Positions 25,601-52,763 of a DNA stretch of 64,000 nt are shown one piece after another. A model generated the notes under the pieces. It saw nothing but the letters and a program-made list of their open reading frames with translations, made no database searches and was not told where the DNA came from. Position 1 is the stretch's first letter. Each line of letters opens with the position of its first letter. Made by a program: the position numbers and the translations under genes. The DNA comes from Candidatus Cloacimonadales bacterium (GTDB lineage: Bacteria; Cloacimonadota; Cloacimonadia; Cloacimonadales; JAFGVF01): NCBI GenBank assembly GCA_963663475.2, contig CAXXJV010000001.1, positions 1,120,001 through 1,184,000 on the forward strand, written 5' to 3'.

Positions 25601-25959
25601 GGCCTCTCACAATCAATCCTCAAAAAAGTTATGAATTTGTAACTTTCAAAGATATAGAATATAATAATAATATACCCCAAGTAGATTGCTTACTTGGTAA
25701 TTATCCAAATCCTTTTAACCCTGAGACAACAATCAACTTTTTCATAACAGAGAAAACCACAGGGTCTTTGAAAATATTTAATTTAAGAGGACAACTGGTA
25801 AATACAGTAATCAATAAAGAAGCATTTTCTAAAGGATATCACAAAGTAACTTGGAATGGGAAAGATAGCTCTCAACATAGGGTAACATCAGGTATCTATT
25901 TTTACAAATTAGAAACCGAGCATACTTATGATGTTGGGAAAATGATTTTACTCAAATAA
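22671..25959 (+). pseudogene. Large secreted beta-helix-like protein with FlgD-Ig/T9SS-type CTD, split by a +1 frameshift near 23060
   Basis: Signal peptide is in ORF 22671-23066; body and CTD (NYPNPFNPETTI...SGIYFYK...KMILLK) are in the overlapping +1 frame. Confidence 0.7.
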
Positions 25960-31255: not shown

Positions 31256-31702
31256 ATGTACACAGATAAAAATTTAATCTATAGAAATCTAAGTTATAGT
31301 AGTAAGCGAGAGCTTTTAGAAGAGTTATGTGGTAATTTAGAAAATGCAGGGATTGTGTCTTCTGCATCAGAATTTTTCCAAGCAATTTGGCAAAGAGAGG
31401 AGAATTTCTCTACTGGGATTGGGAGGAATGTTGCAATTCCACATGGTAAGAGTGAAGGTGTAAAAGAGACCAAGTTAATCTTGGCTTTACTACCTGATGG
31501 TATAGAATATGATTCTCTTGATGGCCTTCCAGTAAAAATAGTTTTTATGTTTGCGGTGCCAAGGGGAAGAGATAAAGAATATATGGCCTTACTAGCTAAG
31601 GTAACAAAATTTGTTAGAGATGAATCTAATCGCAATAAGCTTTTAGATGCTATTGATGAAGAAGAAATTTTAGACCAGATAAGAGAAGTGATCAATGAAT
31701 AA
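31256..31702 (+). CDS. PTS EIIA component (Ntr/fructose type)
   Basis: REENFSTGIGRNVAIPHG motif; likely ATG at 31256. Confidence 0.9.
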   Translation: MYTDKNLIYRNLSYSSKRELLEELCGNLENAGIVSSASEFFQAIWQREENFSTGIGRNVAIPHGKSEGVKETKLILALLPDGIEYDSLDGLPVKIVFMFAVPRGRDKEYMALLAKVTKFVRDESNRNKLLDAIDEEEILDQIREVINE

Positions 31703-32675
31703 GAATTTAATTCTAATAGTGGGTTTGATACTAGTAGTTTTGCCTATATGGGCAATAGGTGATGATGCGGGGACAAGTGGCTTTAATAGTTTGAAGATTA
31801 TCTATTCAGCTAGGGCAAACGCTATGGCAGGGGCATTTACTTCCCGAGATGATGACATTGATGTAATCTTTTTTAATCCAGCTAATTTGGGAGGATATGA
31901 AGTAAAAAGGGAGGTCACTTCCACCTATATGAACTATTTTGATGGTTATAATGGTGGGGCTCTTGCTTACCAGTATCAGAGAAGCAACAAAGCCAATGTA
32001 GCCTTTTTTGGTCAATTTTTAGCTAGTGATGATATTACTAGGACAATTGAGGGCGCTAATGGTGGTTATATTGAATCAGGTACTTTTAGTAATTCTGACT
32101 TAATTGCAGGAGCTACTTACTCATATTATTTCAATGAACAGTTAAATATTGGTATCACAAGCAAGTTTATCCAAGAAACAATTGATGATAAATCCGCTTC
32201 AGCCTTAGCTTTTGATCTTGGTATATTGCATAGACCAGTAAATGAAAAAATCAGAGTTGGAGCTGTAATCCGTAATTTAGGAACACAGATGACTTATTTT
32301 ACTGATTCTGAATATAGTGAAGGTCTTCCTCTAGTTTATGCTGGAGGTATATCATATAAAACAGATTTACAATCTCGCAATAATGAAGCAGAATTTATTC
32401 CTACTATGTTAATTGCTTTAGATTTATCGATTGCTAAAGGTAGTGATTTAGTTGGTTCTATTGGAAGTGAATTTCAAGTACATGACCAGTTCTTTTTACG
32501 AGCAGGTTATAAAACAAACTCTGGTGATTATAAAAATGGTGGAGATAGTGAAATATTCTCAGGTTTTTCCACTGGGGTAGGCTTTGTTAGAAACAAGTTG
32601 AAGATTGATTATGCTCTGAACTCTTATGGAGATCTGGGCTTTATTAATCAAGTAACTTTAAAATATCAATTTTAG
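31695..32675 (+). CDS. porV: PorV/PorQ-family outer-membrane barrel
   Basis: ARANAMAGA, FFNPANL, FDLG, RNLG, LRAGY, IDYA; terminal Phe. Confidence 0.8.
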   Translation: MNKNLILIVGLILVVLPIWAIGDDAGTSGFNSLKIIYSARANAMAGAFTSRDDDIDVIFFNPANLGGYEVKREVTSTYMNYFDGYNGGALAYQYQRSNKANVAFFGQFLASDDITRTIEGANGGYIESGTFSNSDLIAGATYSYYFNEQLNIGITSKFIQETIDDKSASALAFDLGILHRPVNEKIRVGAVIRNLGTQMTYFTDSEYSEGLPLVYAGGISYKTDLQSRNNEAEFIPTMLIALDLSIAKGSDLVGSIGSEFQVHDQFFLRAGYKTNSGDYKNGGDSEIFSGFSTGVGFVRNKLKIDYALNSYGDLGFINQVTLKYQF

Positions 32676-38425: not shown

Positions 38426-39442
38426 ATGGATTATAAAAGTGCTGGTGTCGATATTAAAGCTGGTGAAGATTCAGTAAACAGAATTAAACCTCTTGTAAAA
38501 GAAACCTTTAATAAGAATGTTCTATCTCAGATTGGTGGCTTTGGGGGTCTTTATCAAGTAGATCTTTCTACCTGGAAAGAACCTGTCTTAGTCTCATCTG
38601 CTGACGGAGTAGGAACTAAACTGGTCATTGCTAATATGGCAGGTGTTTATAATACAGTTGGACAAGATCTTGTTAATCATTGCGTGAATGATATCTTTGT
38701 CCAAGGTGCAATTCCGCAATACTTCTTAGACTACGTAGGAGTTGGTAAACTAAATCCCAAAGTTATGGAAGAAATTATTTGGGGTTTTGCTAAAGCTTGT
38801 AAAGAAAATGAAATGGCTCTTATTGGTGGAGAAATGGCTGAAATGCCAGGAATCTATGCTGAAGATGACTTTGATTTAGCTGGAACTATTGTGGGTATGG
38901 TGGAAAAAAAGAATATTATTACTGGAGATAAGATTCAAAAAGGCGACCTTATCCTAGGTCTACCTTCTACTGGCCTGCATACTAATGGTTACTCTCTAGC
39001 TAGAAAAATTCTCTTTGAAAAGATGAATTTAAAAGTTGATTCCCTCCTTCCACAAGTAAATGAAAGCCTTGCTGATGCTATGTTGAAAATTCATAAATCT
39101 TATCTACCTATCTTAAAAGAATGGGCTAAACCAGATTTGATTCATGGCATGGCTCATATAACAGGCGGGGGAATTCCTGGTAACCTATCAAGAGTTATTC
39201 CTGATAATATGACTGCTGAAATTAATTGCAAAGCTTGGGATATTCCTGCTATCTTCCAGCTCTTAGTTGAAAATGGAAATATTGCCCAAGACGAAAGTTA
39301 TCGTGCTTTCAATATGGGAATTGGAATGATAGTAGTTGTTGCCCCTGACCTTGCCCAGACTATTAAAGAAAAAACTTCTGCTATTGAAATTGGCTATATT
39401 AATGAGAGAGTTGCTGATCTTAAAGTTAGGATGAACTACTAA
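38426..39442 (+). CDS. purM: Phosphoribosylaminoimidazole synthetase
   Basis: YKSAGVDI, DGVGTK, GGEMAEMPG, GLHTNGYS, HITGGG. Confidence 0.96.
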   Translation: MDYKSAGVDIKAGEDSVNRIKPLVKETFNKNVLSQIGGFGGLYQVDLSTWKEPVLVSSADGVGTKLVIANMAGVYNTVGQDLVNHCVNDIFVQGAIPQYFLDYVGVGKLNPKVMEEIIWGFAKACKENEMALIGGEMAEMPGIYAEDDFDLAGTIVGMVEKKNIITGDKIQKGDLILGLPSTGLHTNGYSLARKILFEKMNLKVDSLLPQVNESLADAMLKIHKSYLPILKEWAKPDLIHGMAHITGGGIPGNLSRVIPDNMTAEINCKAWDIPAIFQLLVENGNIAQDESYRAFNMGIGMIVVVAPDLAQTIKEKTSAIEIGYINERVADLKVRMNY

Positions 39443-40263
39443 TGAAATGGAGAATACTTACCCAGGGCAAGCTAAGTCCAGCTGAAAATATGGCTATTGA
39501 TGATGCGATTTTCCAGCTTGTCCAAGAAGGTAAATCTACTCCCTTAATTAGATTCTACGACTGGAATCCACCAACCCTATCTCTAGGTTATCATCAAAAT
39601 GCTGAAAAAGAAGTTGATTTTACGAAACTTAAAGAAATTGCTTATGGCTTTGTTAGAAGACCAACTGGTGGAAGACTAGTTCTCCATAAAAATGAAGTTA
39701 CCTACTCAGTGATTGCTCCTAATGATGAACATCTGGCAGGCAATGTTCTTAAAAGCTATGGAGACATTAGCTTAGCCTTAGCTGAAGGTTTAAAACTTCT
39801 GGGTATTCAGGTTGAATTTGAACAAAAAGAACTATCTTCTTTTTCACAAAGAGAACCAGTAAACCCTTGTTTTAATTCTTCTTCTAAATATGAGCTAGCT
39901 GTCCAAGGTAAAAAGATTGTTGGCTCTGCTCAGGTGAGAAAGAATGGGGTCTTACTCCAACATGGATCTATCATTCTCGATGAAAATCAAAGGGAAATAG
40001 CTTATCTTATGCCTGGACTTTCCGATAAGATGCGGGAAAGACTAGCTAAGCTAATGGATAACAAAACTATCTCCATTAATCAAGTTCTGCAAAAAAAGAT
40101 TCCTTACTCCTTAGCTGTAAAAAAATTTTCTCAAGGATTCCAACAAGCATGGCAAAACGATATTTTTGAAGAAATCCAAGATTTAGAAGACTTTGAAAAA
40201 ATTAGAGTAGAAAAATTAATTAAAAAAAAATACTCGACAGATATGTGGAACTTGAGAAAATAG
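39442..40263 (+). CDS. lipM: Lipoate-protein ligase / LipM-like octanoyltransferase
   Basis: NMAID, VRRPTGG, PCF, KKIVGSAQ, LQHGS. Confidence 0.8.
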   Translation: MKWRILTQGKLSPAENMAIDDAIFQLVQEGKSTPLIRFYDWNPPTLSLGYHQNAEKEVDFTKLKEIAYGFVRRPTGGRLVLHKNEVTYSVIAPNDEHLAGNVLKSYGDISLALAEGLKLLGIQVEFEQKELSSFSQREPVNPCFNSSSKYELAVQGKKIVGSAQVRKNGVLLQHGSIILDENQREIAYLMPGLSDKMRERLAKLMDNKTISINQVLQKKIPYSLAVKKFSQGFQQAWQNDIFEEIQDLEDFEKIRVEKLIKKKYSTDMWNLRK

Positions 40264-40552: not shown

Positions 40553-43500
40553 ATGCGAAAGACAGCTATATTGATTACTGTCGTTTTAGTGCTTTTTAGT
40601 GTCCAATTATATGCTCAGACTTCTGGTGTATTAAAGGGACAAGTTAGAGATAATAACGGAGAACCATTACCACAGGCTAACGTTGTATTACAGTTAGATG
40701 GTAATAATACTCAATTCGGTACTAGTACTGATGAATTCGGTGAATATATTATTATTAATATCTCACCAGGTGTCTATGACCTCATGGTCTCTGCTACTGG
40801 TTACAGAAGACAATTAATTCAAGGTGTTGAAATTAATGTTAACCAAACCACTAATAGGGATCCTGTGAGATTAGAACCAGGAGATAATTCATTAGAAGCT
40901 ATTACTTTTACTGAGAAACGTAAGGTAATCGATACCGATAGAGTCGGTACTGAAAGATCCATTGATGTAGGGAATATTAGTGATTTATCTGTTTCCAGTG
41001 TTGATGATATTATGGCCCTCCAACCTGGTGTTACTAATGTAGGTGGAGAAATTCGTGTCCGTGGTTCAAGATCTAATGAAGTTAACTTTACCGTTGACGG
41101 TATGTCAGTTTCTGACCCTGTTGATGGTGGTTCTGCTCTTCAAGTTGATACTGATGCTATCGCTGATATGAAGGTTTATACTGGTGCTTTAACTGCTGAA
41201 TTTGGTAATGCTCAATCCGGTATGGTAAATATCGTTACCCGTTCAGGTTACCCTGAATATAGAGGTAAGGTTGAATGGAATACTGATCATCTAGTTGATG
41301 ATGGTAGAAACCAAGACTTACTTAGATTTAACTTCGGTGGACCAGTTCTTGGCTATTTAGGTGCAGAAAACAATCTAAACTCAAGATTTACCTTCTTTAT
41401 TAATGGTGCTGGAACATGGACTGATGGAAGATATGCAGAATACTATGAATCAGACCCTTATGCAGACTTCACTTTTAATGGACTTCCATTAGTTAATGAA
41501 TACCCTGTTTATGATGTTTATAGTGATAGAGATGAAGTTGCAGGTTTCGATTTATCAAGTAGAAACTACAATGACTATAATATTAACTTCAAATCTAAGT
41601 ATCAAATTAATAACAACTCAAATGTTACCTTCGCTGTACGTGGAGACCGCTCAAGTTACAGACCTTTTGATTGGGGCTGGAAATATGCTCTCCAACATTT
41701 TGCTGAAACAGAAACTGAACAAAAGCAGTATGTTTTTACCTATGACCAAAATCTTAGTCAAACTGCTAACCTAAAATTAAAAGCTTCTTACTTCCAAAAA
41801 GATTCTTATGAAGGACCTAAAGGTATTGATAGAGATAGCTTCTTACATTTAGTTGTTTCCTCTGATGAACTTAATAGCGATGATGAATTAAGAAATGATT
41901 ATGTGCAAAGTGTTCTTAATAATGAAGGTATCTTCTTATATAACCACCCAGCTTATGTTTCTATAGATAGCGATACTGATGGTGTTTATGACTATTATAG
42001 CTCATTTAGACCTGCTTCAGAATGGACTTATGAAACTAATGCCTATAGTGAAAACCCTGGTATTCCTGGTTTTAATGCTCCTGGTTCTATATACACTAAC
42101 TTTGTTGATGATAAAACTGTTTCATACAATCTTAGAGGTGATGTAGAATGGGCGATTGATAGAATCAATACTGCTAAGACTGGTTTTGAATTAACTCGTT
42201 ATAGTATTGAAAAAAATCAGCTCCAAAGCTTTACTACTATTTATAATGATAGAAGAAGTAATTACTTAAGATCTATCTTTGATTCTGCTTCTATTCCAGA
42301 AGGTGCTGATTCACTTGCTATTCAAGATATTGTTAATAATAACAATGATGTTGTTGAAATCTTTGGTGACGGCTCAGCTGAAAACCCTTACTTTGTTGTT
42401 TATTCTCCTGAATCATATTATGAAGCATCTAAAGCTTCTTCTGGTACTAGAGATGGTTATAAAGCTGAACCTATTCAAGGTGCTTTCTATTTACAAGATA
42501 AAATGGAATGGCAAGGTATGATCGTTAATGCTGGTTTAAGATTTGACTTCTGGTACATTGGTGAAGACTATGATGTTCTCAACGATGATGGTACTTACAG
42601 AACTGAAAAGTTTGAAGGCAAAGATAAAACTCAGCTAATGGTTTCACCTCGTGTTGGTGTTTCTCACCCTATCTCTGAAAGAGATGTTCTTAGATTTGCT
42701 TATAACTATCAAAACCAGTTGCCTGCTATGAGATATATATTCACTTCTAAAACACCTCAAGATGCTTACACTTCAGATAATGCAATTACTGTTGGTAATG
42801 CTGAACTTGAACCTCAAATTACTATCACTTATGAAGTTGGTCTTCAACACTTAATCAATGAAGATTGGGCTATTGACCTTTCATTATACTATAAAAACTA
42901 CTATAACTATGTATCAACAAGAAAAGTTGTAGACCCTGATGAACCTCAAGTTTTCTGGTATGAATTTATCTCTGAAGACTATGCGTCAGGTAGAGGTATT
43001 GATATTGCTTTAGATAAAGCTTTAACAAACTTCTGGTCTGCAAATATTTCTTATTCATTTGCTTGGGCTGAAGGTAATAACTCTTCAACTGTTATCCAAG
43101 ATGAAAATACAAATCTTCGTGAATTCCCTCTTGATTGGGATATCAGAAACAATCTAAGCTTGAATTTAATGTTTAGAATTGAAAGAGGTGAAGAATTCTT
43201 CATTCCTTTCACAAACTATATTTTACCATTGGATGATTTCTCTACTAGTTTCACTTACACTTACTCTTCTGGAGAACCTTATACTCCTCAAGATCCTGAA
43301 ACTGATAATTTCTTAGATCCTAATAGTGAAAGAAAAGATGCTAGACAAAATACTAGTTTGAAGATTTCTAAAAAAATTAATATTAGTAGAAATTCATTTA
43401 TTAATGTTTTCTTTGATATTGATAACTTATTCAAGTATAGAAATATCAATAATGTATATGCAAAAACTGGTGACCCATTTGACTCAGGTGAAGATTTCTC

Positions 43501-43615
43501 AGTTAATGGCGTAAATATACCAGAAGTTGATTTCATGAATCAACATAGATTTAGTGATCCAGGAAGAGTTTCTCAAGATAGATCATACTCTTTTGGTATC
43601 TCTTATAATTTCTAA
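40553..43615 (+). CDS. TonB-dependent receptor with N-terminal carboxypeptidase-regulatory-like domain
   Basis: Plug LQPGV...VRGSR...VDGMS, AEFGNAQSG; SPRVGVSHP; terminal YNF. Confidence 0.92.
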   Translation: MRKTAILITVVLVLFSVQLYAQTSGVLKGQVRDNNGEPLPQANVVLQLDGNNTQFGTSTDEFGEYIIINISPGVYDLMVSATGYRRQLIQGVEINVNQTTNRDPVRLEPGDNSLEAITFTEKRKVIDTDRVGTERSIDVGNISDLSVSSVDDIMALQPGVTNVGGEIRVRGSRSNEVNFTVDGMSVSDPVDGGSALQVDTDAIADMKVYTGALTAEFGNAQSGMVNIVTRSGYPEYRGKVEWNTDHLVDDGRNQDLLRFNFGGPVLGYLGAENNLNSRFTFFINGAGTWTDGRYAEYYESDPYADFTFNGLPLVNEYPVYDVYSDRDEVAGFDLSSRNYNDYNINFKSKYQINNNSNVTFAVRGDRSSYRPFDWGWKYALQHFAETETEQKQYVFTYDQNLSQTANLKLKASYFQKDSYEGPKGIDRDSFLHLVVSSDELNSDDELRNDYVQSVLNNEGIFLYNHPAYVSIDSDTDGVYDYYSSFRPASEWTYETNAYSENPGIPGFNAPGSIYTNFVDDKTVSYNLRGDVEWAIDRINTAKTGFELTRYSIEKNQLQSFTTIYNDRRSNYLRSIFDSASIPEGADSLAIQDIVNNNNDVVEIFGDGSAENPYFVVYSPESYYEASKASSGTRDGYKAEPIQGAFYLQDKMEWQGMIVNAGLRFDFWYIGEDYDVLNDDGTYRTEKFEGKDKTQLMVSPRVGVSHPISERDVLRFAYNYQNQLPAMRYIFTSKTPQDAYTSDNAITVGNAELEPQITITYEVGLQHLINEDWAIDLSLYYKNYYNYVSTRKVVDPDEPQVFWYEFISEDYASGRGIDIALDKALTNFWSANISYSFAWAEGNNSSTVIQDENTNLREFPLDWDIRNNLSLNLMFRIERGEEFFIPFTNYILPLDDFSTSFTYTYSSGEPYTPQDPETDNFLDPNSERKDARQNTSLKISKKINISRNSFINVFFDIDNLFKYRNINNVYAKTGDPFDSGEDFSVNGVNIPEVDFMNQHRFSDPGRVSQDRSYSFGISYNF

Positions 43616-43655
43616 AATAAATAAAATATAATATAATAATTGGAGGAAATGAAGG

Positions 43656-44399
43656 ATGAATAAGAAAATTTCAGTACTCTTACTAATAATTTTGTTAGGA
43701 AGTTTTGTATTTACTACTGCTCTTTTTGCACAAGAGGCTGCACAAGATGGTGGTAGTGCTATTGAAACTATTGCAAGTACTCTTTTTGGAAAAAGCTTAG
43801 TTAAACAGTTTAAAGATGGTGGATGGGCAATGTGGCCTCTCTTAGCTTTATTTATCTGGGGACTTGGTATCGGTATTTGGAAACTCTTAGTTTTAGTAAG
43901 AGGAAGAATAAATGTTGAAAAATTCTTAGATGAAATTGTTCCTAAAATAAAAGATGGTAACTTCAAAGCTGCTATTGATTATGTTAATGATCAAAAAGGT
44001 TCAGTTGCAAATATAGTTAGAGCTGGTTTATTAAAAAATGATTCTGGTATCGAAGCTATGGAAAAAGCTATGGAAAACGCAGCTGTTGTTGAAATGTCTT
44101 TCTTAGATAGAGGTTTTAACGAATTATCAACTACAATTACCTTGGCTCCTATGATGGGTTTCTTAGGAACTCTTCTTGGTATGATTACAGCTTTTGATGA
44201 TATTCAAAACACTGAAGTTGTTGATGCTGGTGTTGTTGCTGGAGGTATCAAGATAGCTCTTATTACTTCTGCTGCAGGTTTAATCATTGCGATCCCTATT
44301 CAATTTGCTAACAATATTTTCATGACTATGGTTGATAGCATTGTTGTTGATATGCAGAAAGCAACTGAAAAGGTAATTGATACTTTGACTGAAAAGTAG
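43656..44399 (+). CDS. exbB: MotA/TolQ/ExbB proton channel
   Basis: GGWAMWPL, APMMGFLGT, GIKIALITSAAGL. Confidence 0.93.
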   Translation: MNKKISVLLLIILLGSFVFTTALFAQEAAQDGGSAIETIASTLFGKSLVKQFKDGGWAMWPLLALFIWGLGIGIWKLLVLVRGRINVEKFLDEIVPKIKDGNFKAAIDYVNDQKGSVANIVRAGLLKNDSGIEAMEKAMENAAVVEMSFLDRGFNELSTTITLAPMMGFLGTLLGMITAFDDIQNTEVVDAGVVAGGIKIALITSAAGLIIAIPIQFANNIFMTMVDSIVVDMQKATEKVIDTLTEK

Positions 44400-44410
44400 G
44401 GTGGGGAATC

Positions 44411-44890
44411 ATGAAATTTCCTGCTAAAAAGAAAAAAAGTGCTGAAATACCAACAGCTTCAATGTCTGACATTGCATTCTTATTGATAGTTTTCTTTATG
44501 GCAGTTGGAAAATTTGATAATAAACAGGGTATTCCTTATCAAATTGCTGCTCCTGCTGCTGAAGAACAAACTCAAGAGCAAGATGTAATTTTAGACAGAC
44601 AGAATCTTATTGAAATTGAGATTTGGAATGAGGCTGGTACTAGCAATGTCTTATGTGAATATTTTGTTTACGATGAGAATGATGTTAAACAAGATGGTGT
44701 AAGATTTAGAGTAGCAGAACTTGGAAAGCAGATGATCAAAGATAAAGTTGAGAAGAATCCTGATAGTGTTATTAAACTCAAGATTGATAGAAATGTTGAG
44801 TACCGTGGATTTATTTCTGTATTCGATGAATTAAGAGCTAATAATATGGCGAAAAAAGTTAAATTTGAACGCCACTATTTAAACAAATAG
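44411..44890 (+). CDS. exbD: ExbD/TolR
   Basis: SMSDIAFLLIVFFM. Confidence 0.9.
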   Translation: MKFPAKKKKSAEIPTASMSDIAFLLIVFFMAVGKFDNKQGIPYQIAAPAAEEQTQEQDVILDRQNLIEIEIWNEAGTSNVLCEYFVYDENDVKQDGVRFRVAELGKQMIKDKVEKNPDSVIKLKIDRNVEYRGFISVFDELRANNMAKKVKFERHYLNK

Positions 44891-44899
44891 GAGAGTAAT

Positions 44900-45352
44900 A
44901 TGAATATGATTAGAAAAAAGGTCAAGGCAGAAGCTAACACTTCTTCTTCATCTGATATTGCTTTCTTACTCCTGCTCTTCTTTGTTGTAACAACTCAGAT
45001 TATCTATATTCCTGTTCAAACTAAATATCCAAATGCTCGAGAAATAGAAAGACAGATGCAAAGTAATATTCTTACTGTTTATGTTGCTAATGATGGCACA
45101 TCTCCAAATTTTGATTATTATTTAGATGACGTCTATGTTAATGAGCTAGTTGATAATAAGAGTAACGAAGAAATTAGTCGTAGCTTAGGCAAGCAAATCA
45201 GATCAAGAATCGATCAAGATCCTGATCGTAACTGGATTGTTAGTCTTAGAATAGATGCTGATGTAGATTTTGATACTATTAATACCTTAATAACAGATCT
45301 TCAAAACAATAAAGTAGAATCTATTGTTTTTGAAGCAAGAAAGAGGGGCTAA
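44900..45352 (+). CDS. exbD: ExbD/TolR, second copy
   Basis: SSSDIAFLLLLFFVVT. Confidence 0.9.
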   Translation: MNMIRKKVKAEANTSSSSDIAFLLLLFFVVTTQIIYIPVQTKYPNAREIERQMQSNILTVYVANDGTSPNFDYYLDDVYVNELVDNKSNEEISRSLGKQIRSRIDQDPDRNWIVSLRIDADVDFDTINTLITDLQNNKVESIVFEARKRG

Positions 45353-45355
45353 TAT

Positions 45356-46042
45356 ATGGCGGGTAAATATACTGATTGGAAAACTGAGGCAAATGGCTAC
45401 CTGGTTAAAGGTATGGCAATGTCTGTTGTTTTAGTTATGTTTCTTTTACTAGTTATGCCTCGTTTCGAATCTTCTGCTAAAGAGGAAGAGGTTAGTGATG
45501 AATCACAAGTATCAGAACATTTTGAATTTGAAGAAGTTGTTGAAGAGGAAGAAATTATAGAGGAAGAAGCTCCTGAAGAAGAAGAGGAGATTATTAATCC
45601 TGAAGAAAATATTCAGATGAACTTTGATGAATTAGGTCTTGAGGATATTGAAAGTGCTGTTGAGCGTAAAACAATCTCTACTACAGATGATTTAGAAAAA
45701 CTTAACATCTCATTCTCTTCTGTTGATGAAGCTAGTATTAATCAACCTTATGTTGTTCACCAAGAAATGCCTACTGTTATCAGAAGCGTTAAACCTATTT
45801 ATCCAGATATTGCTATTCAAAACAATGTTGAGGGTACTCTTATTGTGGAAGCTTGGGTAAAAGTAGATGGTACTGTTGGTAATGTAAGAGTTATTAAATC
45901 TCTTCAAAGCATTCCTGGTGGATTAGATGAAGCAGCAGTAAATGCTGTTTGGCAATGGACATTTGAACCTGCAAAATCTGGTGGTAGACCTGTAGCTTGT
46001 TGGGTGAAAATTCCTCTTAACTTAAAATTTGAAGATAATTAA
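45356..46042 (+). CDS. tonB: TonB with acidic linker
   Basis: N-terminal TM, Glu-rich linker, YPDIA...EG...LDEAAVNAVWQWTFEPA. Confidence 0.92.
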   Translation: MAGKYTDWKTEANGYLVKGMAMSVVLVMFLLLVMPRFESSAKEEEVSDESQVSEHFEFEEVVEEEEIIEEEAPEEEEEIINPEENIQMNFDELGLEDIESAVERKTISTTDDLEKLNISFSSVDEASINQPYVVHQEMPTVIRSVKPIYPDIAIQNNVEGTLIVEAWVKVDGTVGNVRVIKSLQSIPGGLDEAAVNAVWQWTFEPAKSGGRPVACWVKIPLNLKFEDN

Positions 46043-46057
46043 ACTGGAGGATTATAA

Positions 46058-49000
46058 ATGAAATTGATTTTCCGTAAGCTGATTCCAGTATTAGCTATAA
46101 TGATTTGTAGCATTTCTTTGCTAAATGCTGCTGCGGTCGACCCGACTCCGACCAAACAATTTGACTTAACTAAATATCATGATGTTGGAAACATTTGGCT
46201 CCGTGTAAGTAATTACGGTTTCTTTGGTTCTGGTAGTGATATTACTCCTCAATACCCGTCTCTTGAGTATCCTGGTGGTAGTGGAATTGACTATCTCTAT
46301 CAAGGTGCTTTATGGTTCGGTGCGAAAAAAATTAGAAGAAACGCAACTGGTGAAAAACTTTATTGGACATCAAGTGATCCTTATGGTGAAGAAGATATGA
46401 GTGTTATTGCTGAATCTGACTTACCTGATGATTATAATGGATTAGGTGTTGTGCTTGATACATTAGTATCTGTGGGTTTCGACGGTGACTTAGGTTTAAA
46501 TGAGTTTTTGCCTGCCTATAATCCTACAGAAAATGCAAACCCATCAGTATCAGACTTTTTTGGTACTTTCAATTCATCTGATAAAATCATGACTGCTTCT
46601 ACTAGAAGCCAAAGACGTGGAGACGATGATGATGGTGATGGAAAAATCGACGAAGATGGACCTGGTTTTACCTTCCCGATGAGAGATATGCATGAGTTAC
46701 CTGAAGCTTTCCAAGATTTAGGTTCTATTTATCTTCATGAGCAAGATTTTGATCAAACAAGAGCTATTGAAGAGAGACAAGACATCTGGTTCCCTCTTGG
46801 TTTTATGGATCTTTCTGCTAGTGATGAGAGTGAATATTTTAACTTTGCTACTCCTTATGATGATGATGGTGATGGTAGAGTTGATGAAGATTCTGCACCT
46901 GTATCTGAACAAGATTTTATTTCATATTATTATGATTATTCTCCATTTGGATATGAAGGCCAAAGAGACTGGGGAAGAGATAAATCAAGATCTGATCATT
47001 ACCCATTGAACATTCGTGTTAGACAAATGAGTTATCAATGGTCTTATGAATATATTAAAAATCTTGTTTATATTGAATTTAATATTACAAATATGAATGA
47101 CCAAGACACTCTTTATGATTGTGCTATGGGTGTCTATATGGACTCTGACGTTGGACCTCAAAGTTGGGATTCTGATAAAGCTTCTGATGACCTTTCTGGT
47201 TATCAAAAAGGTGATGATTATGAATTTGCATACACTCGTGATAATGACGGTGATGGTGGTTTAACTACTGGACTTGTTGGTTCACGTGTTTGTTCTCCAA
47301 TTCCTAACCCAGACTCATTAAACTATTCTTGTTGGTTCTGGGAAGTTGGTGATGGTCCTGATGATTCCAATATCAGATCTTCAACCCTTACAGGAAAAAC
47401 TAATAATGAAAAATATTGGTTATTGATTGGTGGAAAAGCTAGAACACTTGAGTCTGGTGAAGTTATCCATATCAATCCTGATGATCAAAAATTTGAATCT
47501 TTGAGAAAAGAAGATAGTGAAGGTTTTGGTGACCATTTTATCCAACCTATTGCTGCTGATACTAGATATCTCTTTGCTTTTAGTGGTGCCCAACCAGGTA
47601 CTCCTGATTATAATGAAGTAGATGCTGAAGGTAACTATTTCAAAAGATGGAACCTTGCTCCACGTAAAACTATGAAAATTGTTATTGCTGTTTTCCCAGG
47701 AGATAACTTGGAAGATCTTAAAGCTACTTCAATTTGGGCTAAGACAATCTATGGTGATGCTCAATCATTAACTAATGTTGTTCTTCCTGATACCGCTTTA
47801 CACTATACTCCACCTGAACCTCCTGAAATTCCTAACTTATTTGCTGAAATTTCTGAAGATGGTAACTATATAGATTACTATTGGGATAATAGATCTATTT
47901 TCTCATATGATAGAGATAATGTTAGTGGAACTGTTGTTGGTTGGCAAGATGGTAATGCTAATTTTGATTCATATTATCAAAATTGGGACCAATGGAGTGA
48001 CATTTACGCTGGTAATACTGAAGTACCTGCACCAGCTGATACACTATCAAGTGAAGAAACAAGAACTATTGCTCCTCCAACTGCATTTAGATTAAGACAT
48101 GACTTCCAAGGATACCGTACCTGGATTAGATCAGGTTCTGGATCACAAGAAGATTGGTCATTAGTTCAAATGTGGGGTAAATATGAAAGTCAACAAGACT
48201 TAGAAGACTATAATGTAAATCTTGGTGTTGTTAATAGTGCTGGCGATGCGATTTTTGAAGATTTTGGTGGTTATACTGATATCGATACAGGCTTACCAAA
48301 TGAAAGAATTGCTGGTTCTGAAAATAATAGATACGAAGATGACCAATATTATAAATATAATGAATACTATGTGATGCGTCCTATTGAGCTTGGTGAAACC
48401 ATTAATGGTTGGCCTCTCTATAGATATGATGTTGATTATAGTCAAGAACTTCAAGATCAAGCAGATCAGATTGCTAATGATATGTTCGGTATAGTAGTTA
48501 ACCAAGCTGCTGGTACAATTCTCTCAGATGAAGTTAAAGCTGAAATTGCTGTACAACTTTTCAAAAGAGATGATGTTAGAGAAGATATTTTCAGAGAATT
48601 ATACGATGAAAAATTAATTCCTCTCTATAGTTTCGGTGGTCAATCATCAATCGGTGATACTGAAAAACTTGAAGAACTTAGAAAAGAACGTTTATCTAGA
48701 AGATATTTCAGAGCATCTGCTAGTGTGCCTCGTAAAGGTGTAGAAACCTATGTTGCTGTCACTGCTTTTGATAGAGGTATGCCAGCTAAGTCTCTAGATT
48801 TCTTAGAAACTGGTAGAGATGCTGATGCTAATATGAAAGTATTCTTCCCTGCTCCAAGTAGTAGAGATAATGACGGTTCTAACGTATATGTAGTTCCTAA
48901 TCCATATATTGGTGGATCTTCATTTGACGGTAGAAGAGAAAATGATGATAAGGGTGATAAATCTAAGAGAATTTGGTTCGTTAATTTACCTGCCAGATCT

Positions 49001-49243
49001 CATGTTAAAATCTTCACTCTTGCTGGTGACTTAGTCGATGAATTTAGACATGAAGGTGCCTATGAAGAAGATATCATTACTGTAAGTAAAGCTGCTAGTC
49101 TTGGTATTACTTCTGAAAGCATCCACTCTTGGGACCTTCTTTCAAAAAATAACCAAATTATTGCTCCTGGTGTTTATTTATTCTCAGTTAAGAATCTAAG
49201 AAATGGTGACATCAATGTTGGCAAATTTGTCTTAATTAAATAA
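46058..49243 (+). CDS. Large acidic secreted protein with DDDGDG Ca-binding repeats and T9SS-like CTD
   Basis: Signal peptide; two DDDGDGxxDED motifs; VVPNPY...KIFTLAGDLV...PGVY...GKFVLIK. Confidence 0.85.
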   Translation: MKLIFRKLIPVLAIMICSISLLNAAAVDPTPTKQFDLTKYHDVGNIWLRVSNYGFFGSGSDITPQYPSLEYPGGSGIDYLYQGALWFGAKKIRRNATGEKLYWTSSDPYGEEDMSVIAESDLPDDYNGLGVVLDTLVSVGFDGDLGLNEFLPAYNPTENANPSVSDFFGTFNSSDKIMTASTRSQRRGDDDDGDGKIDEDGPGFTFPMRDMHELPEAFQDLGSIYLHEQDFDQTRAIEERQDIWFPLGFMDLSASDESEYFNFATPYDDDGDGRVDEDSAPVSEQDFISYYYDYSPFGYEGQRDWGRDKSRSDHYPLNIRVRQMSYQWSYEYIKNLVYIEFNITNMNDQDTLYDCAMGVYMDSDVGPQSWDSDKASDDLSGYQKGDDYEFAYTRDNDGDGGLTTGLVGSRVCSPIPNPDSLNYSCWFWEVGDGPDDSNIRSSTLTGKTNNEKYWLLIGGKARTLESGEVIHINPDDQKFESLRKEDSEGFGDHFIQPIAADTRYLFAFSGAQPGTPDYNEVDAEGNYFKRWNLAPRKTMKIVIAVFPGDNLEDLKATSIWAKTIYGDAQSLTNVVLPDTALHYTPPEPPEIPNLFAEISEDGNYIDYYWDNRSIFSYDRDNVSGTVVGWQDGNANFDSYYQNWDQWSDIYAGNTEVPAPADTLSSEETRTIAPPTAFRLRHDFQGYRTWIRSGSGSQEDWSLVQMWGKYESQQDLEDYNVNLGVVNSAGDAIFEDFGGYTDIDTGLPNERIAGSENNRYEDDQYYKYNEYYVMRPIELGETINGWPLYRYDVDYSQELQDQADQIANDMFGIVVNQAAGTILSDEVKAEIAVQLFKRDDVREDIFRELYDEKLIPLYSFGGQSSIGDTEKLEELRKERLSRRYFRASASVPRKGVETYVAVTAFDRGMPAKSLDFLETGRDADANMKVFFPAPSSRDNDGSNVYVVPNPYIGGSSFDGRRENDDKGDKSKRIWFVNLPARSHVKIFTLAGDLVDEFRHEGAYEEDIITVSKAASLGITSESIHSWDLLSKNNQIIAPGVYLFSVKNLRNGDINVGKFVLIK

Positions 49244-49257
49244 GGGAGATTGAACTA

Positions 49258-50280
49258 ATGAAAAAGATAATTATAATAAGCCTAATTGTTCTCCTTCCTA
49301 TACTTATGTTTGCTGAAATCTTCGGTAAAACTGCTACTTCTGCTTTGCAATTTCTTAAATTTGGTGTTGATGCCAGAGCTGTAGGAATGGGTGAAGCTTA
49401 TGTGGCAGTTTCAGATGATATATCTTCAGTTTACTGGAATCCAGCTGGTTTAGCGACAAAACTAAACCATCAAGCTTTCTTCTCTCATACAAAATGGGTA
49501 GCTGACGTAGATCATGAATTTGCTGCTGTTTCTTATACAGACGGTATTCAAGCTCTTGGTTTAAGTGCTTCAGTTCTTCATATGGATGATATGGACGAAG
49601 TTACTGAAGAAGCTTTTGGACCTACTGGAAGAACTTTTACTGCTAGTGATATTGCTATTGGCTTAACATATTCCAATGCTTTCACTGATAAATTTTCTTT
49701 TGGTATTACTGGTAAGTATCTTAGAGAAAATCTCTATGAATTCAGTATCGATAGCTATGCTTTTGATATAGGTTCATTATATAATACTCAATGGCAAAAT
49801 TTAACTATTGGTATGGCCTTAAGAAATTTTGGTCCTGATGTGATTTATGAAATTGATAATGATGGTGATGATTTAACAGACGAAGATCCATTCGATTTGT
49901 TAGACAACGATGGTGATGGTCTAATCGACGAAGATGGGGAAGAGTTAGGTTTTAAAATACCAATGTCTTTCTCTCTCGGTTTAGCTTTAGACCTTATGAG
50001 ACAAGAGGAACAATCTTGGATATTCTCAGCTCAGTTGGATAATGTCGTAGATAGAGAAGAAACTTGGAATTTAGGTTCTGAATACACTTATAGAAACTTT
50101 GCTCTTAGAGCTGGACATCAAATAGGTTATGATGCTGCTGCATTCTCCTTTGGTGCTGGCTTTAAAATCCCAACCAGATTAGCTGTTTTCTCTCTTGATT
50201 ACGCTTATACTGAGATGGGAGATTTGAAAGAAGATTTTATGAATAGTGTTCACCGTTTCTCAGTTAAAATGGATTTTTAA
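49258..50280 (+). CDS. porV: PorV/PorQ-family outer-membrane barrel with DNDGD insertion
   Basis: QFLKFGVDARAVGMGEA, YWNPAGL, FDIG, RNFG, LDYAY; terminal Phe. Confidence 0.85.
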   Translation: MKKIIIISLIVLLPILMFAEIFGKTATSALQFLKFGVDARAVGMGEAYVAVSDDISSVYWNPAGLATKLNHQAFFSHTKWVADVDHEFAAVSYTDGIQALGLSASVLHMDDMDEVTEEAFGPTGRTFTASDIAIGLTYSNAFTDKFSFGITGKYLRENLYEFSIDSYAFDIGSLYNTQWQNLTIGMALRNFGPDVIYEIDNDGDDLTDEDPFDLLDNDGDGLIDEDGEELGFKIPMSFSLGLALDLMRQEEQSWIFSAQLDNVVDREETWNLGSEYTYRNFALRAGHQIGYDAAAFSFGAGFKIPTRLAVFSLDYAYTEMGDLKEDFMNSVHRFSVKMDF

Positions 50281-50396
50281 TCTAAATTTTATAAGGTCCG
50301 AGTGGCTTGCCACTCGGACAAAAAATTTGTAATTTGATGAAAAGTGACTATTTTATCATCAAGAATTTAAACCAAAAAAAAATGGGAGGAATGTAC

Positions 50397-52688
50397 ATGA
50401 AACGATTGTTTCTTGTTGTGGCTGTATTAGCCATTCTTATTACTGGCGTTTTTGCTAGTCAAAACGACCCTAGAAAAGCGATGACGATTGATCCTATGGG
50501 TAATCAATCTTACAGACCGGACAGTAGGTTTATGCCTACCTACAATTTTGCTATCGAACCTGTAACTATAGTTGATAACTTCTATGACTATTTCCCAGGT
50601 TCATACACTGGAAAACCAATGCAAAGAGTTCAAACTCCTACTTTAGATGGACATTGGTTAATTTTCCATACTAAAACTACTGCAAGTTCTAACCGTAGAG
50701 TCTACAAAACCTTTATCGACAATACTGGTAGTATTCAATCAAACACATCATTTGGTTCAGCAGATATCTGGGAAGGATATCCTGGTTTAGCAGTTACTGA
50801 AGGTGGAAGACCTTTATTCGCTTACCATGTTGACCTTGATGACGAAGCTACTGCTCTTGAAGTTGGATTTGGTTATGATGCTGTAATCGGTGGTGTTGCC
50901 CTTGGTATGCACTCATCTCTTTACCAAATCATCGATAATCCATTAGAAATTGAAGTTAATGGAGTTACTGTTTCCACTAACGAATTTATCTGGCCTTCAG
51001 TACAAGTTGGTCCTTCACCTGTTGCAGGTTCACAACGTGTATATATCATGGCTAAAAATGCTACTGACAATGGTACTGCTATTTCAGAAAACGTTGTTAT
51101 GTATTACAAAGATTTCACAGAAACTGAAATCGAACTTCAATCATTTGATGGTTCAGGTTGGTCATATACTACCATCCCTGAAATGGATGAATGGAACAAT
51201 TCTCAAGGTGAATGGAGAAGACCTTACATGTCATTCATCGTTCATGAAGACAAAGCCTATTACATTGGTTACCACATTGCTTACACTGAATCTGGTGAAG
51301 CTGGAGAACCAATTGATGAAGGTACTTTAACTGTATTCGCATGTGATAACTATGGTGAAGGTGAATGGACAAGACATTCAACTTATGCTAAAATCGATTG
51401 TGAAAATCCAAAACAAATTAATCCTGAAACTGGTGAAATTGTTGCTGGAACTGGTATCTTTGTTGATGATTCAAACGAACCATACGCAGACGAATTCATC
51501 GAAATGGGTATTGGCCAATCAGGTCACTTCAGTTCAAGTGTTGACCATGCAGGTAGAATTCATATTCCTGCTTTCTTCACAGTTCAAAGTACTGAAGGTG
51601 GCTACTGGCCAGATTTCCATACTGTGAAAAACCTTGCTTTTGATACAGCTACTTTAGAATGGACTTTCTCTGAAGTTTATCCACAAGTAGATAATGGTAC
51701 AAATATTCCTAACCCTGCTGCAGACTTCACTAACTATGATGGTGCAAATGGTGGATATAATGACGTAACAGTTTGGAAAAGCTGGGACAAAAACGCTGAT
51801 GGTCTTCATGATCAAGTTCTTGATGATGGTACTTGGGATGGTGAAGATGATGGTGTAACTGCTGCTGATGCTGAATATTGGGGAATCCCTATCAGAGATA
51901 ACATATGGCCTTACATGTATTGGGATTCAGCTGCTGCTGATAATGCTATGATGTTCCATCTTCATACTGCTCACGTTACTAATGCTAACGAACATGGTAT
52001 GATGGCTATGGTTTGGCAATCTGCTCAAAGATCTAAAGATTACAACGAATATCCTGATTCATATCCTGAATTAGCTGACTACCAAAATATGCCTGAATTA
52101 GTTATTTCTGTTTCAGCTGATAATGGTAATCACTGGTCAGAACCTATCTTCTTAAACGGTGTTGATACACCTGAAATGGCTGACGAAATTCCTGAATTCC
52201 CTTACTTAGGTTCAGAAGTTGATTTCATCGGTCTTGATGAAAATGATAATCCTATCGGTCGTGTTCATGTTATGTACTTAGATGATGATACTTATGGTTC
52301 ATCTGTACAAGCAATCGGACAAGCTACTGGTGGAACAATGAAATATATGGCTCTTGACATAGTATTTGTTGATGCTCCTGTTGATAATGAACAAAATGAT
52401 GTTGTTCCTAACATCGCTATGTTAAACCAAAACTACCCTAATCCTTTCAATCCTACTACTACAATTAATTATAATGTAGTAAAATCTGGTGATGTTAAAC
52501 TTAATGTTTATAACGTGAAAGGTCAATTAGTTAAAACTCTTGTTAACTCACCTCAAACTGTTGGTTTAAATTCAGTTGTTTGGAACGGTGATGATAATGC
52601 TGGAAATAAAGTTTCTTCAGGTGTTTACTTCTACAAAGTAGAAAATGCTGGAAGAACTGAAATGAAGAAAATGGTATTAATGAAATAG
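50397..52688 (+). CDS. Secreted protein with FlgD-Ig/T9SS-type CTD
   Basis: GGAGGA RBS then ATG 50397; signal peptide; QNYPNPFNPTTTI...SSGVYFYK...KKMVLMK. Confidence 0.9.
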   Translation: MKRLFLVVAVLAILITGVFASQNDPRKAMTIDPMGNQSYRPDSRFMPTYNFAIEPVTIVDNFYDYFPGSYTGKPMQRVQTPTLDGHWLIFHTKTTASSNRRVYKTFIDNTGSIQSNTSFGSADIWEGYPGLAVTEGGRPLFAYHVDLDDEATALEVGFGYDAVIGGVALGMHSSLYQIIDNPLEIEVNGVTVSTNEFIWPSVQVGPSPVAGSQRVYIMAKNATDNGTAISENVVMYYKDFTETEIELQSFDGSGWSYTTIPEMDEWNNSQGEWRRPYMSFIVHEDKAYYIGYHIAYTESGEAGEPIDEGTLTVFACDNYGEGEWTRHSTYAKIDCENPKQINPETGEIVAGTGIFVDDSNEPYADEFIEMGIGQSGHFSSSVDHAGRIHIPAFFTVQSTEGGYWPDFHTVKNLAFDTATLEWTFSEVYPQVDNGTNIPNPAADFTNYDGANGGYNDVTVWKSWDKNADGLHDQVLDDGTWDGEDDGVTAADAEYWGIPIRDNIWPYMYWDSAAADNAMMFHLHTAHVTNANEHGMMAMVWQSAQRSKDYNEYPDSYPELADYQNMPELVISVSADNGNHWSEPIFLNGVDTPEMADEIPEFPYLGSEVDFIGLDENDNPIGRVHVMYLDDDTYGSSVQAIGQATGGTMKYMALDIVFVDAPVDNEQNDVVPNIAMLNQNYPNPFNPTTTINYNVVKSGDVKLNVYNVKGQLVKTLVNSPQTVGLNSVVWNGDDNAGNKVSSGVYFYKVENAGRTEMKKMVLMK

Positions 52689-52725: not shown

Positions 52726-52753
52726 AAAACCTCGCTTCGGCGAGGTTTTTTTT
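52726..52753 (+). terminator. Intrinsic terminator
   Basis: AAAACCTCGC-ttcg-GCGAGGTTTT followed by a T run. Confidence 0.9.
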
Positions 52754-52763
52754 GAACCTCTAA

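Follow-up and report, generated by a model that had tools for sequence, protein, structure and literature searches.

We analyzed a stretch of 64,000 nucleotides, hereafter the window (G000:C1:1120001-1184000), from the 99.2% complete genome of a Candidatus Cloacimonadales bacterium, and in it an operon of eight genes. The operon joins a TonB-dependent transporter (TBDT) and a full set of Ton energizer genes to a secreted protein of 1061 amino acids (aa), here called FAM, a barrel of the PorV/PorQ family and a protein with a type IX secretion system (T9SS) C-terminal domain (CTD). Our results suggest that three of the products, the TBDT, FAM and the barrel, belong together as a conserved outer-membrane module. 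The genes and the end of the operon are, in window coordinates:

40553-43615, + strand: TBDT gene, 1020 aa; CarboxypepD_reg, Plug and TonB_dep_Rec_b-barrel domains over cut-off
43656-44399, + strand: exbB, 247 aa; MotA/TolQ/ExbB channel, MotA_ExbB PF01618 at 91.8 bits
44411-44890, + strand: exbD, first copy, 159 aa; PF02472 at 61.6 bits
44900-45352, + strand: exbD, second copy, 150 aa; PF02472 at 57.3 bits
45356-46042, + strand: tonB, 228 aa; TonB_C PF03544 at 63.5 bits
46058-49243, + strand: FAM gene, 1061 aa; no Pfam or NCBIfam match at E ≤ 0.01
49258-50280, + strand: PorV/PorQ-family barrel gene, 340 aa; NF033709 at 223 bits (cut-off 90)
50307-52688, + strand: type-A CTD protein gene, open reading frame (ORF) of 793 aa; TIGR04183 at 39.5 bits (cut-off 23), PF18962 at 27.8 bits (cut-off 27)
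52727-52754, + strand: intrinsic terminator with a 6-bp GC-rich stem, a TTCG loop and a T8 tail, read from the sequence

An initial annotation of this DNA had described eight co-directional genes closed by a strong terminator, and both parts of that description hold: every ORF was recovered at its given coordinates, and a hairpin with the letters CCTCGC-TTCG-GCGAGG followed by T8 lies 3' of the operon. The consensus terminator scanner did not list the hairpin at 52727-52754, though it is plain by direct reading. Intergenic gaps are 3-40 bp throughout, except for about 110 bp ahead of the last gene, whose likely start is at 50391 or 50397, ahead of a signal peptide, which gives a protein of about 765 aa. 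The N-terminal part of this protein belongs to no known family, and three close paralogs of it are encoded in the genome. A promoter scan found 45 sigma-70-like sites against 57.1 in shuffled sequences, a result that is uninformative for Cloacimonadota. Contigs from four metatranscriptome libraries of one study match every operon gene in part, with identities of at least 95%; one of them bridges the junction of FAM and the PorV-like gene (48706-49336), and others run from the end of the PorV-like gene into the last intergenic region. In some runs several bins of the TBDT, ExbB and FAM genes were uncovered and depth was far higher on the last gene, an unevenness that cannot be interpreted since the data are contigs only and the last gene has its three close paralogs.

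The TBDT consists of a signal peptide, a CarboxypepD_reg N-terminal extension (NTE; PF13620, 64 bits, residues 27-103), a plug (PF07715, 33.4 bits against a cut-off of 23.9), a 22-strand-type barrel (PF00593, 65 bits against a cut-off of 27) and a C-terminal F, and by this domain order its architecture is of the SusC/Oar class. As a single sequence it matched nothing in the PDB. A profile of its orthologs matched only distant TBDTs, with 9gbc_A as the best at E 2.2e-15, and also the NTE of a SusC homolog (9hfj_A) and a TBDT NTE (6ytc_A). A candidate TonB box, judged by eye only, follows the NTE at about residues 113-122. Among the eight operon proteins no Pfam match to a SusD-family lipoprotein was found at E ≤ 0.01.

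FAM begins with a signal peptide and a beta-supersandwich, the latter bearing acidic D-x-D-G-D-G repeats; an Fn3-like part comes next, and a divergent CTD of the T9SS type closes the protein (about residues 940-1061). The CTD is undetectable in FAM itself by sequence models, as neither Pfam nor NCBIfam gave a match at E ≤ 0.01, and a FAM profile searched against the PDB returned nothing. The structure model of FAM reached a predicted local distance difference test score (pLDDT) of 66.6, and a whole-model Foldseek search with it was uninformative outside the CTD. There, the last ~100 residues matched the CTD of RemZ (8gl8_D, TMt 0.62), which is held in the solved SprA-PorV complex 8gl8, as well as PorZ (5m11) and PorU (6za2). 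This was further supported by the relative P0166, which is alignable with FAM only in three segments at 33-36% identity and which, folded with 82 sequences, gave a model with pLDDT 83.8 and a predicted template modeling score of 0.80. Its CTD superimposes on that of PorZ 5m11 with a root-mean-square deviation (rmsd) of 3.1 over 125 columns at 22% identity. Over its residues 40-474, P0166 resembles the beta-supersandwich that forms the non-catalytic N-terminal domain of bacterial glucoamylase 1lf6 (Z 18.5, rmsd 2.8, 232 residues), and the same domain matches dextran dextrinase 9ju0 (Z 19.9) and the N-domains of enzymes of glycoside hydrolase families GH15, GH116 and GH94, the latter phosphorylases (Z 17-20); the P0166 model holds no catalytic (alpha/alpha)6 domain. 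The modeled structures thus support FAM as a T9SS CTD protein by fold, not by sequence model, and the likeness of its N-domain to carbohydrate enzymes is only a hint of a substrate.

Homologs of FAM number 572, and the named ones are Cloacimonadota hypothetical proteins with 52-98% identity. Among 1.84 billion representative proteins, 1439 clusters are related to FAM, and the relatives include two classes. Those of class one (~660 aa) have the N-terminal and middle parts in common with FAM and end in an ordinary type-A CTD; those of class two (650-900 aa) resemble it in the N-terminal part and in the last 180 residues, which are unusual. When 17 relatives were scanned, eight gave TIGR04183, five gave only a weak match, to the CTD portion of the PorZ model, and four gave no match.

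Two other identities for FAM were tried and dropped. The idea of a divergent M6-like inactivated metalloprotease arose because of the size of FAM and because M6-like inactivated proteins adjoin other PorV paralogs of the genome, but FAM gave no match to NF052323 and its fold is a beta-supersandwich. FAM is also not the PorZ of this genome, as a propeller-type PorZ-like ORF lies at C1:678263-680284 (143 bits) and FAM resembles PorZ in the CTD only. By eye, acidic runs of the D-x-[DN]-x-D-G type are seen in FAM (window 46600-46900), in a loop of the barrel (49840-49950) and in the longer distant TBDTs; they are reminiscent of calcium-binding thrombospondin type 3 repeats, as an unquantified impression, and a strict regular expression for such a calcium motif found none in the operon proteins or in 33 PorV-likes.

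The barrel encoded directly downstream of FAM is of the 14-strand type, matches NF033709 over residues 27-340 (model positions 1-326) and carries an acidic D-N-D-G-D-G loop insertion. It is neither PorV proper (NF033710, 93.6 bits against an equivalog cut-off of 250) nor PorQ proper (NF033711, 95.6 bits against 220). The PorV model scores higher, 151 bits, on the paralog at C1:1897098-1898150, and the PorQ model reaches 141 bits on the second PorV-family gene of the window at 31695-32675. A profile of the barrel's orthologs matches the solved F. johnsoniae PorV (6h3i_F, E 3.5e-19), and phmmer with the barrel found seven PorV-family ORFs in the genome, the operon barrel included. We then predicted the complex of barrel residues 21-340 with FAM residues 880-1061. 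The interface score (ipSAE) was 0.87, a mark attained by 116 of 157 solved complexes and by two of 215 mismatched pairs, and the best of three controls scored 0.00. The runs agreed in at least 96% of contacts, with a partner pLDDT of at least 69. On this prediction the barrel is the presumed cognate anchor or shuttle of FAM.

A large CTD protein lies beside a PorV-family barrel at four other loci of the genome as well (C1:877487-881497, C1:1893843-1898150, C1:97664-115742 and C1:1304911-1310888), where the proteins include M6-like inactivated metalloproteases, one of 5691 aa that has a PorE-like gene as neighbor, and a PorU2/PorV2-like pair. This gene arrangement suggests that cognate PorV-family anchors may be a general habit of Cloacimonadota. 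To our knowledge, all type-A CTDs of Bacteroidota are said to use a single PorV.

The initial annotation had proposed operon conservation as a check, and the gene order proved well kept within the phylum. A FAM scan of the genome collection gave 210 relatives, and the best 80 loci, all from Cloacimonadota, were kept. Among these, TonB lay directly upstream of FAM in 70 of 77 evaluable loci and the PorV-like gene directly downstream in 61 of 67; two ExbD genes were present in 68/74, ExbB in 67/73 and the TBDT in 62/66. The core order TBDT-ExbB-ExbD-ExbD-TonB-FAM-PorV-like stood in 55 of the 59 loci evaluable on both sides, at FAM identities to the query down to about 48%. The exceptions are lone extra FAM copies with neither neighbor, and for at least three of them the same assembly has a complete operon as well (L063 with L048, L084 with L061, L070 with L064). 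A homolog of the 793-aa protein follows the PorV-like gene in 53 of 62 evaluable loci. In this genome FAM is single-copy, and it is unusually conserved, with 52-57% identity across the order.

The distribution of FAM was also followed in 61 Cloacimonadota genomes, each at least 90% complete. The FAM profile matched in 54 of them; it was missing from two fragmented assemblies and from all five members of the reduced-genome family f9. No sampled genome has FAM without SprA, and FAM was found in 0/5 of the genomes lacking SprA. The five members of family f9 (G002, G005, G008, G017 and G023), with genomes of 1.5-1.6 Mb, have SprA, FAM, Plug and PorV-family matches all at 0/5, and retain only a TolQ-TolR-like pair with a TonB_C protein of 235 aa after it. 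The surface-display and TBDT apparatus appears, from these gene contents, to have been lost together, and the family cannot separate the hypotheses because all four are missing at once.

To look beyond the phylum we scanned metagenomes with an alignment of seven class-two FAM relatives; an earlier scan with a 24-sequence alignment had been set aside as too divergent. The scan gave 189 relatives, of which 79 loci on 78 contigs (GC 40-61%) were kept. Of 44 evaluable distant loci, 30 had a TBDT of the window TBDT's subfamily (183-310 bits to it) immediately upstream of FAM, and with the window TBDT as query the second TBDT of our genome gave no match at all. Directly downstream of FAM a PorV-like barrel was found in 24 of 37 evaluable loci; those of the distant trios scored 199-262 bits on a hidden Markov model (HMM) of the operon barrel, as against at most 100 for the six other paralogs of the genome. 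Where both sides were evaluable (n=24), 21 loci had both partners, three had neither and none had only one. The order of the trio was kept across TBDT identities as low as 25-29%, and some loci hold tandem repeats of the FAM-PorV pair. ExbB, ExbD and TonB had no match within 10-kb flanks in any of the distant contigs (0/78). The coherence of TBDT, FAM and barrel at loci without Ton genes argues that the trio, rather than the eight genes, is the unit, that is, a TBDT with FAM and a dedicated PorV-family barrel. By the same gene orders, the four Ton genes are a Cloacimonadota insertion between TBDT and FAM, and the 793-aa CTD protein, which lies outside the distant trio, is a Cloacimonadota addition.

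Two further genes neighbor the trio in part of these lineages. At nine of nine annotated distant loci the fourth gene, after the PorV-like barrel, encodes a lipoprotein of 540-680 aa (signal peptide and Cys) that belongs to no Pfam family and may be a fourth component of the module there, judging from its position. The lipoprotein genes are:

L115: 13317-15029
L116: 13206-14921
L128: 13411-15030
L133: 13101-14987
L134: 16072-17967
L162: 13528-15300
L172: 14001-16034
L182: 13497-15374
L184: 13636-15555

Its sole homolog in our genome is an unlinked ORF of 813 aa at C1:1718364-1720805. On the other side, directly upstream of the TBDT, the window holds a lipoate/octanoyl-protein-ligase-like gene (LplA-B_cat; 39442-40263, + strand). 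A gene of this type stands in the same place in 21 of 24 evaluable distant loci (among them L115, L116, L133, L134, L172, L182 and L184) and in 15 of 52 Cloacimonadota loci.

The Ton genes of the operon encode the MotA_ExbB, ExbD and TonB_C domains together, and the operon TonB is the sole TonB_C match in the genome. Matches to Plug are two only, the operon TBDT and a BtuB-like receptor beside an ABC transporter. With the one TonB_C protein and one of the two Plug receptors, the operon carries the housekeeping Ton motor of the cell. Phmmer with the operon ExbB found three paralogs, one TolQ-like, one orphan ExbB-like and one MotA-like, of which the TolQ-like forms a TolQ-TolR pair. The MotA-like protein is encoded with a MotB-like protein and with one of 478 aa that has a C-terminal FliG domain, in an exopolysaccharide cluster (G000:C2:161493-165194, - strand) that also holds a Wzc-type tyrosine kinase and a PEP-CTERM-system-like ATPase. 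The orphan ExbB-like protein (273 aa) is followed by two ExbDs (191 and 198 aa) and a 489-aa protein (G000:C1:415850-419632, - strand), about 5 kb from porU. The 489-aa protein is fast-evolving, of no known family and without TonB_C; a single-sequence search recovered it from 44 of 61 genomes, and outside the genus its identity is 26-33%, too divergent for absences to be read. This cluster is a candidate energizer, as good a candidate for replacing PorLM as the one in the operon.

The secretion route for CTD proteins is encoded elsewhere in the genome. SprA (2131 aa; TIGR04189, 487 bits summed against 200, and a SprA_N match) lies at C1:1089722-1096117, 24 kb upstream of the window, and the PorU sortase (NF033707, 571.6 bits against 420) at C1:408426-412349. 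Sub-threshold but long matches were obtained for the PorZ-like ORF at C1:678263-680284 (cut-off 260), a PorE-like protein (201 bits against 600) and a PorU2/PorV2-like pair, and the PorQ-like protein at window 31695-32675 is likewise sub-threshold. Phmmer with the last operon protein found 114 ORFs in the genome with the same CTD. SprA was over cut-off in 56 of the 61 Cloacimonadota genomes. No match in the genome was found for GldL, GldM, GldN or PF12081 (TIGR03513, TIGR03517, TIGR03523), a weak negative because the GldL, GldM and GldN models also found nothing in control genomes. Across the phylum sample GldL was over cut-off in 0/61 genomes, with one match of 18.5 bits. The GldK model TIGR03525 matched only FGE-sulfatase domains in the genome, below cut-off. 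Two genes before SprA, upstream of coaX and sprA, a 960-aa protein (G000:C1:1085725-1088607, + strand) has eight CHB_HEX_C repeats and a C-terminal FGE-sulfatase domain and also aligns with the N-terminal portion of the GldK model; it may or may not be a ring component of the PorK kind. FGE-sulfatase domains are many in this genome.

The initial annotation had noted the lack of sprA and porK/L/M/N, which is true of the window itself and, for sprA, not of the genome; the genome-wide HMM check that it called for accordingly returned SprA and PorU, with the negatives given above for the remaining components. Its central proposal, a receptor-like barrel in place of SprA, is refuted by the presence of SprA in this genome and in 56/61 of the phylum. 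For PorLM, the other half of that proposal, the weak negatives decide neither way. It had also counted two PorV-family genes in the window, which are the two described here, and six proteins with CTDs. The latter count stands in part, as four are firm, one is sub-threshold and FAM qualifies at the level of fold. The CTD proteins found by sequence models are:

16878-18518: firm
22936-25959: firm
50307-52688: firm, the last gene of the operon
62418-63998: firm, 3'-open
28451-30859: sub-threshold, 21.1 bits against a cut-off of 23

Taken together, and on the solid ground of gene identities and synteny, of a genome that encodes SprA and PorU, and of the FAM fold, we hypothesize that TBDT, FAM and barrel form a conserved outer-membrane module in which FAM, exported by SprA and held by its own barrel, is an accessory of TBDT-driven uptake, and we give this reading an even chance. 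FAM would cross the inner membrane via Sec and be exported by the SprA translocon encoded elsewhere in the genome, and the co-encoded PorV-like barrel would hold its CTD at the cell surface, an anchoring that the docking model points to. There FAM would act as a surface capture or lid component for the neighboring TBDT, which would import a bulky substrate with power from TonB-ExbB-ExbD2. The Ton genes would have been inserted into the Cloacimonadota operon because they are the only Ton motor of the cell and the TBDT is one of only two, and the last gene, with its 765-aa type-A CTD protein, would be a lineage-specific addition. An import complex with a CTD-protein accessory on a dedicated PorV had been offered in the initial annotation as an alternative, and it fits the data best, as the trio travels together in distant lineages and the CTD is predicted to dock.

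Several observations weigh against this reading. The direction of transport, the substrate and the physical complex of the three proteins are inferred. A beta-supersandwich fold shows no function, and at the nine annotated distant loci no glycoside hydrolase or peptidase gene flanks the trio to point to a substrate. A single-copy, conserved protein that is near-universal with SprA fits core machinery as well as a nutrient-binding accessory. The pass of the barrel-CTD prediction may stem from likeness to solved PorV-CTD complexes such as 8gl8, and the score shows no preference of the FAM CTD for the operon barrel over the six other paralogs. The contigs in the synteny counts are related, so the counts overstate independence, and the RNA-library data, being contigs, prove neither a single transcript nor its strand or level.

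That FAM fits core machinery equally well leads to another explanation, in which the trio is an accessory of the T9SS itself that acts late, in secretion or in attachment. The TBDT would then correspond to PorF of P. gingivalis, without which T9SS output is incomplete, FAM and the barrel would be an attachment-type subcomplex, and TonB energy would feed a T9SS step where PorLM is undetectable. We consider this unlikely, if plausible. The accessible text of PMC5445135 lists PorF (PG0534) as a beta-barrel that resembles TonB-dependent receptors and is essential to the T9SS, and that of PMC12704123 places the porF mutant in the same partial-loss class as porQ and porZ, with the interaction partners of PorF unknown. 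FAM is found in nearly as many genomes as SprA (54 against 56 of 61) and both are absent from family f9, no PorLM motor was detected (GldL in no genome, GldM and GldN not in this one), and more than 100 CTD ORFs rely on the secretion system. However, plain SprA cargo would be expected to co-occur with SprA just as FAM does, and the PorZ-like and PorQ-like proteins encoded elsewhere mean that FAM and its barrel are not the sole candidates for an attachment complex. In other lineages, tandem FAM-PorV pairs, FAM-like N-domains on ordinary type-A cargo and lone paralogs also look more like substrate-specific families than like core machinery. A bolder form of this idea, which we hold to be rather unlikely, would make the trio an undescribed machine of Cloacimonadota and neighboring candidate phyla that couples TonB energy to T9SS-type display or attachment, with the TBDT in a role like that of PorF and the Ton motor in place of PorLM. 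Another reading is the main proposal of the initial annotation, or an Oar-type variant of it: the TBDT, powered by ExbBD-TonB, would carry FAM or further CTD proteins across the outer membrane, replacing or bypassing SprA and PorLM. Here the Oar protein of Myxococcus is a precedent, as it has the same CarboxypepD_reg-plug-barrel build and its own Ton system and is needed for PopC secretion, according to the part of PMC6434023 available to us; the FAM CTD is moreover too divergent for type-A models, and PorKLMN were not detected. We regard such export as very improbable, given SprA and PorU in the genome, SprA in most relatives and no FAM without it, a FAM CTD of T9SS fold with a predicted docking on a PorV homolog, in the manner of SprA cargo, and no Ton genes near the distant trios. 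In addition, the NTE-plug-barrel build is also that of ordinary SusC-type importers and accounts for 28% of the TBDTs surveyed in the same source (PMC6434023).

The genes may instead be two units on one transcript with neither physical nor functional coupling: one would be the housekeeping Ton machinery and its main receptor, the other a T9SS cargo and the shuttle cognate to it. CTD/PorV-family pairs do exist without a TBDT (C1:878402-881497 with 877487-878389, C1:1897098-1898150 with 1893843-1897076, C1:98667-115742 with 97664-98620), as do FAM paralogs without either neighbor, and the lipoate-ligase-like gene that is also kept upstream of the TBDT illustrates that old gene order persists in these lineages. 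The all-or-none co-occurrence at the 24 distant loci argues against uncoupled units, as does a gene order that is kept at TBDT identities of only 25-29% and that persists whether or not four Ton genes lie between TBDT and FAM, and we find this explanation distinctly unlikely.

Compared with known systems, the parts are of known kinds and the conserved combination of the three is new. As in the SusC/SusD and RagAB systems of Bacteroidota, a TBDT with a CarboxypepD_reg NTE is encoded beside a surface partner in a kept gene order. In contrast to SusC/SusD, no SusD-like protein is present and the partner is a CTD protein, T9SS-exported and predicted to sit on its own PorV-family barrel instead of being a lipoprotein, while the distant lineages have the 540-680-aa lipoprotein as fourth gene. 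A CTD protein on a dedicated outer-membrane barrel is likewise found in PorQ-PorZ and PorV-PorU of the P. gingivalis attachment complex, where a PorQ-PorZ subcomplex is known from the available text of PMC10947112; FAM is like PorZ in its CTD fold only, its body being a beta-supersandwich and that of PorZ propellers. For type-B CTD cargo with its PorP/SprF shuttle in F. johnsoniae, the gene of the cognate barrel also follows directly downstream of the cargo gene, an arrangement described in the accessible part of PMC12618676, but the barrel here is of the PorV/PorQ family, although below the equivalog cut-offs of both. PorF of P. gingivalis, which we compared by description only, is likewise TonB-dependent-receptor-like and its partners and role are unknown; in the accessible text of PMC5445135 and PMC12704123, porF figures as a T9SS gene; no operon joining it to a CTD protein, to a PorV-family barrel or to Ton genes is reported there. 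Oar of Myxococcus xanthus, as described in the available part of PMC6434023, has the same NTE-plug-barrel, is clustered with ExbB, ExbD and TonB and sets a precedent for a TBDT in protein export, but it is without PorV-family or CTD partners, and here a complete SprA/PorU route serves the CTD proteins. In the full-text literature, which leaves most subscription journals outside its scope, we found no description of a module of TBDT, CTD protein and PorV-family barrel, and T9SS components in Cloacimonadota are mentioned only in passing in the accessible text of PMC11285876.

TonB-dependent transport and type IX secretion are two well-studied outer-membrane systems that have been treated as separate. 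The inheritance of TBDT, CTD protein and PorV-family barrel as a unit across deep divergence argues for a physical three-part surface complex. If the module is an uptake device, it would be a second way, besides SusD-type lipoproteins, to give a TBDT a surface partner, in this case one delivered by the T9SS and clipped on its own barrel. If it is instead related to the T9SS, it would open a genetic route to PorF, a TonB-receptor-like component of the T9SS for which neither role nor partners are known. In either case it bears on the secretion of CTD proteins in phyla with SprA, PorU and more than 100 cargo genes but no detectable PorLM motor. The module is found almost throughout Cloacimonadota, a phylum abundant in anaerobic digesters and sediments, and since it holds their only Ton motor, it is probably central to the feeding or the surface building of these uncultured bacteria.

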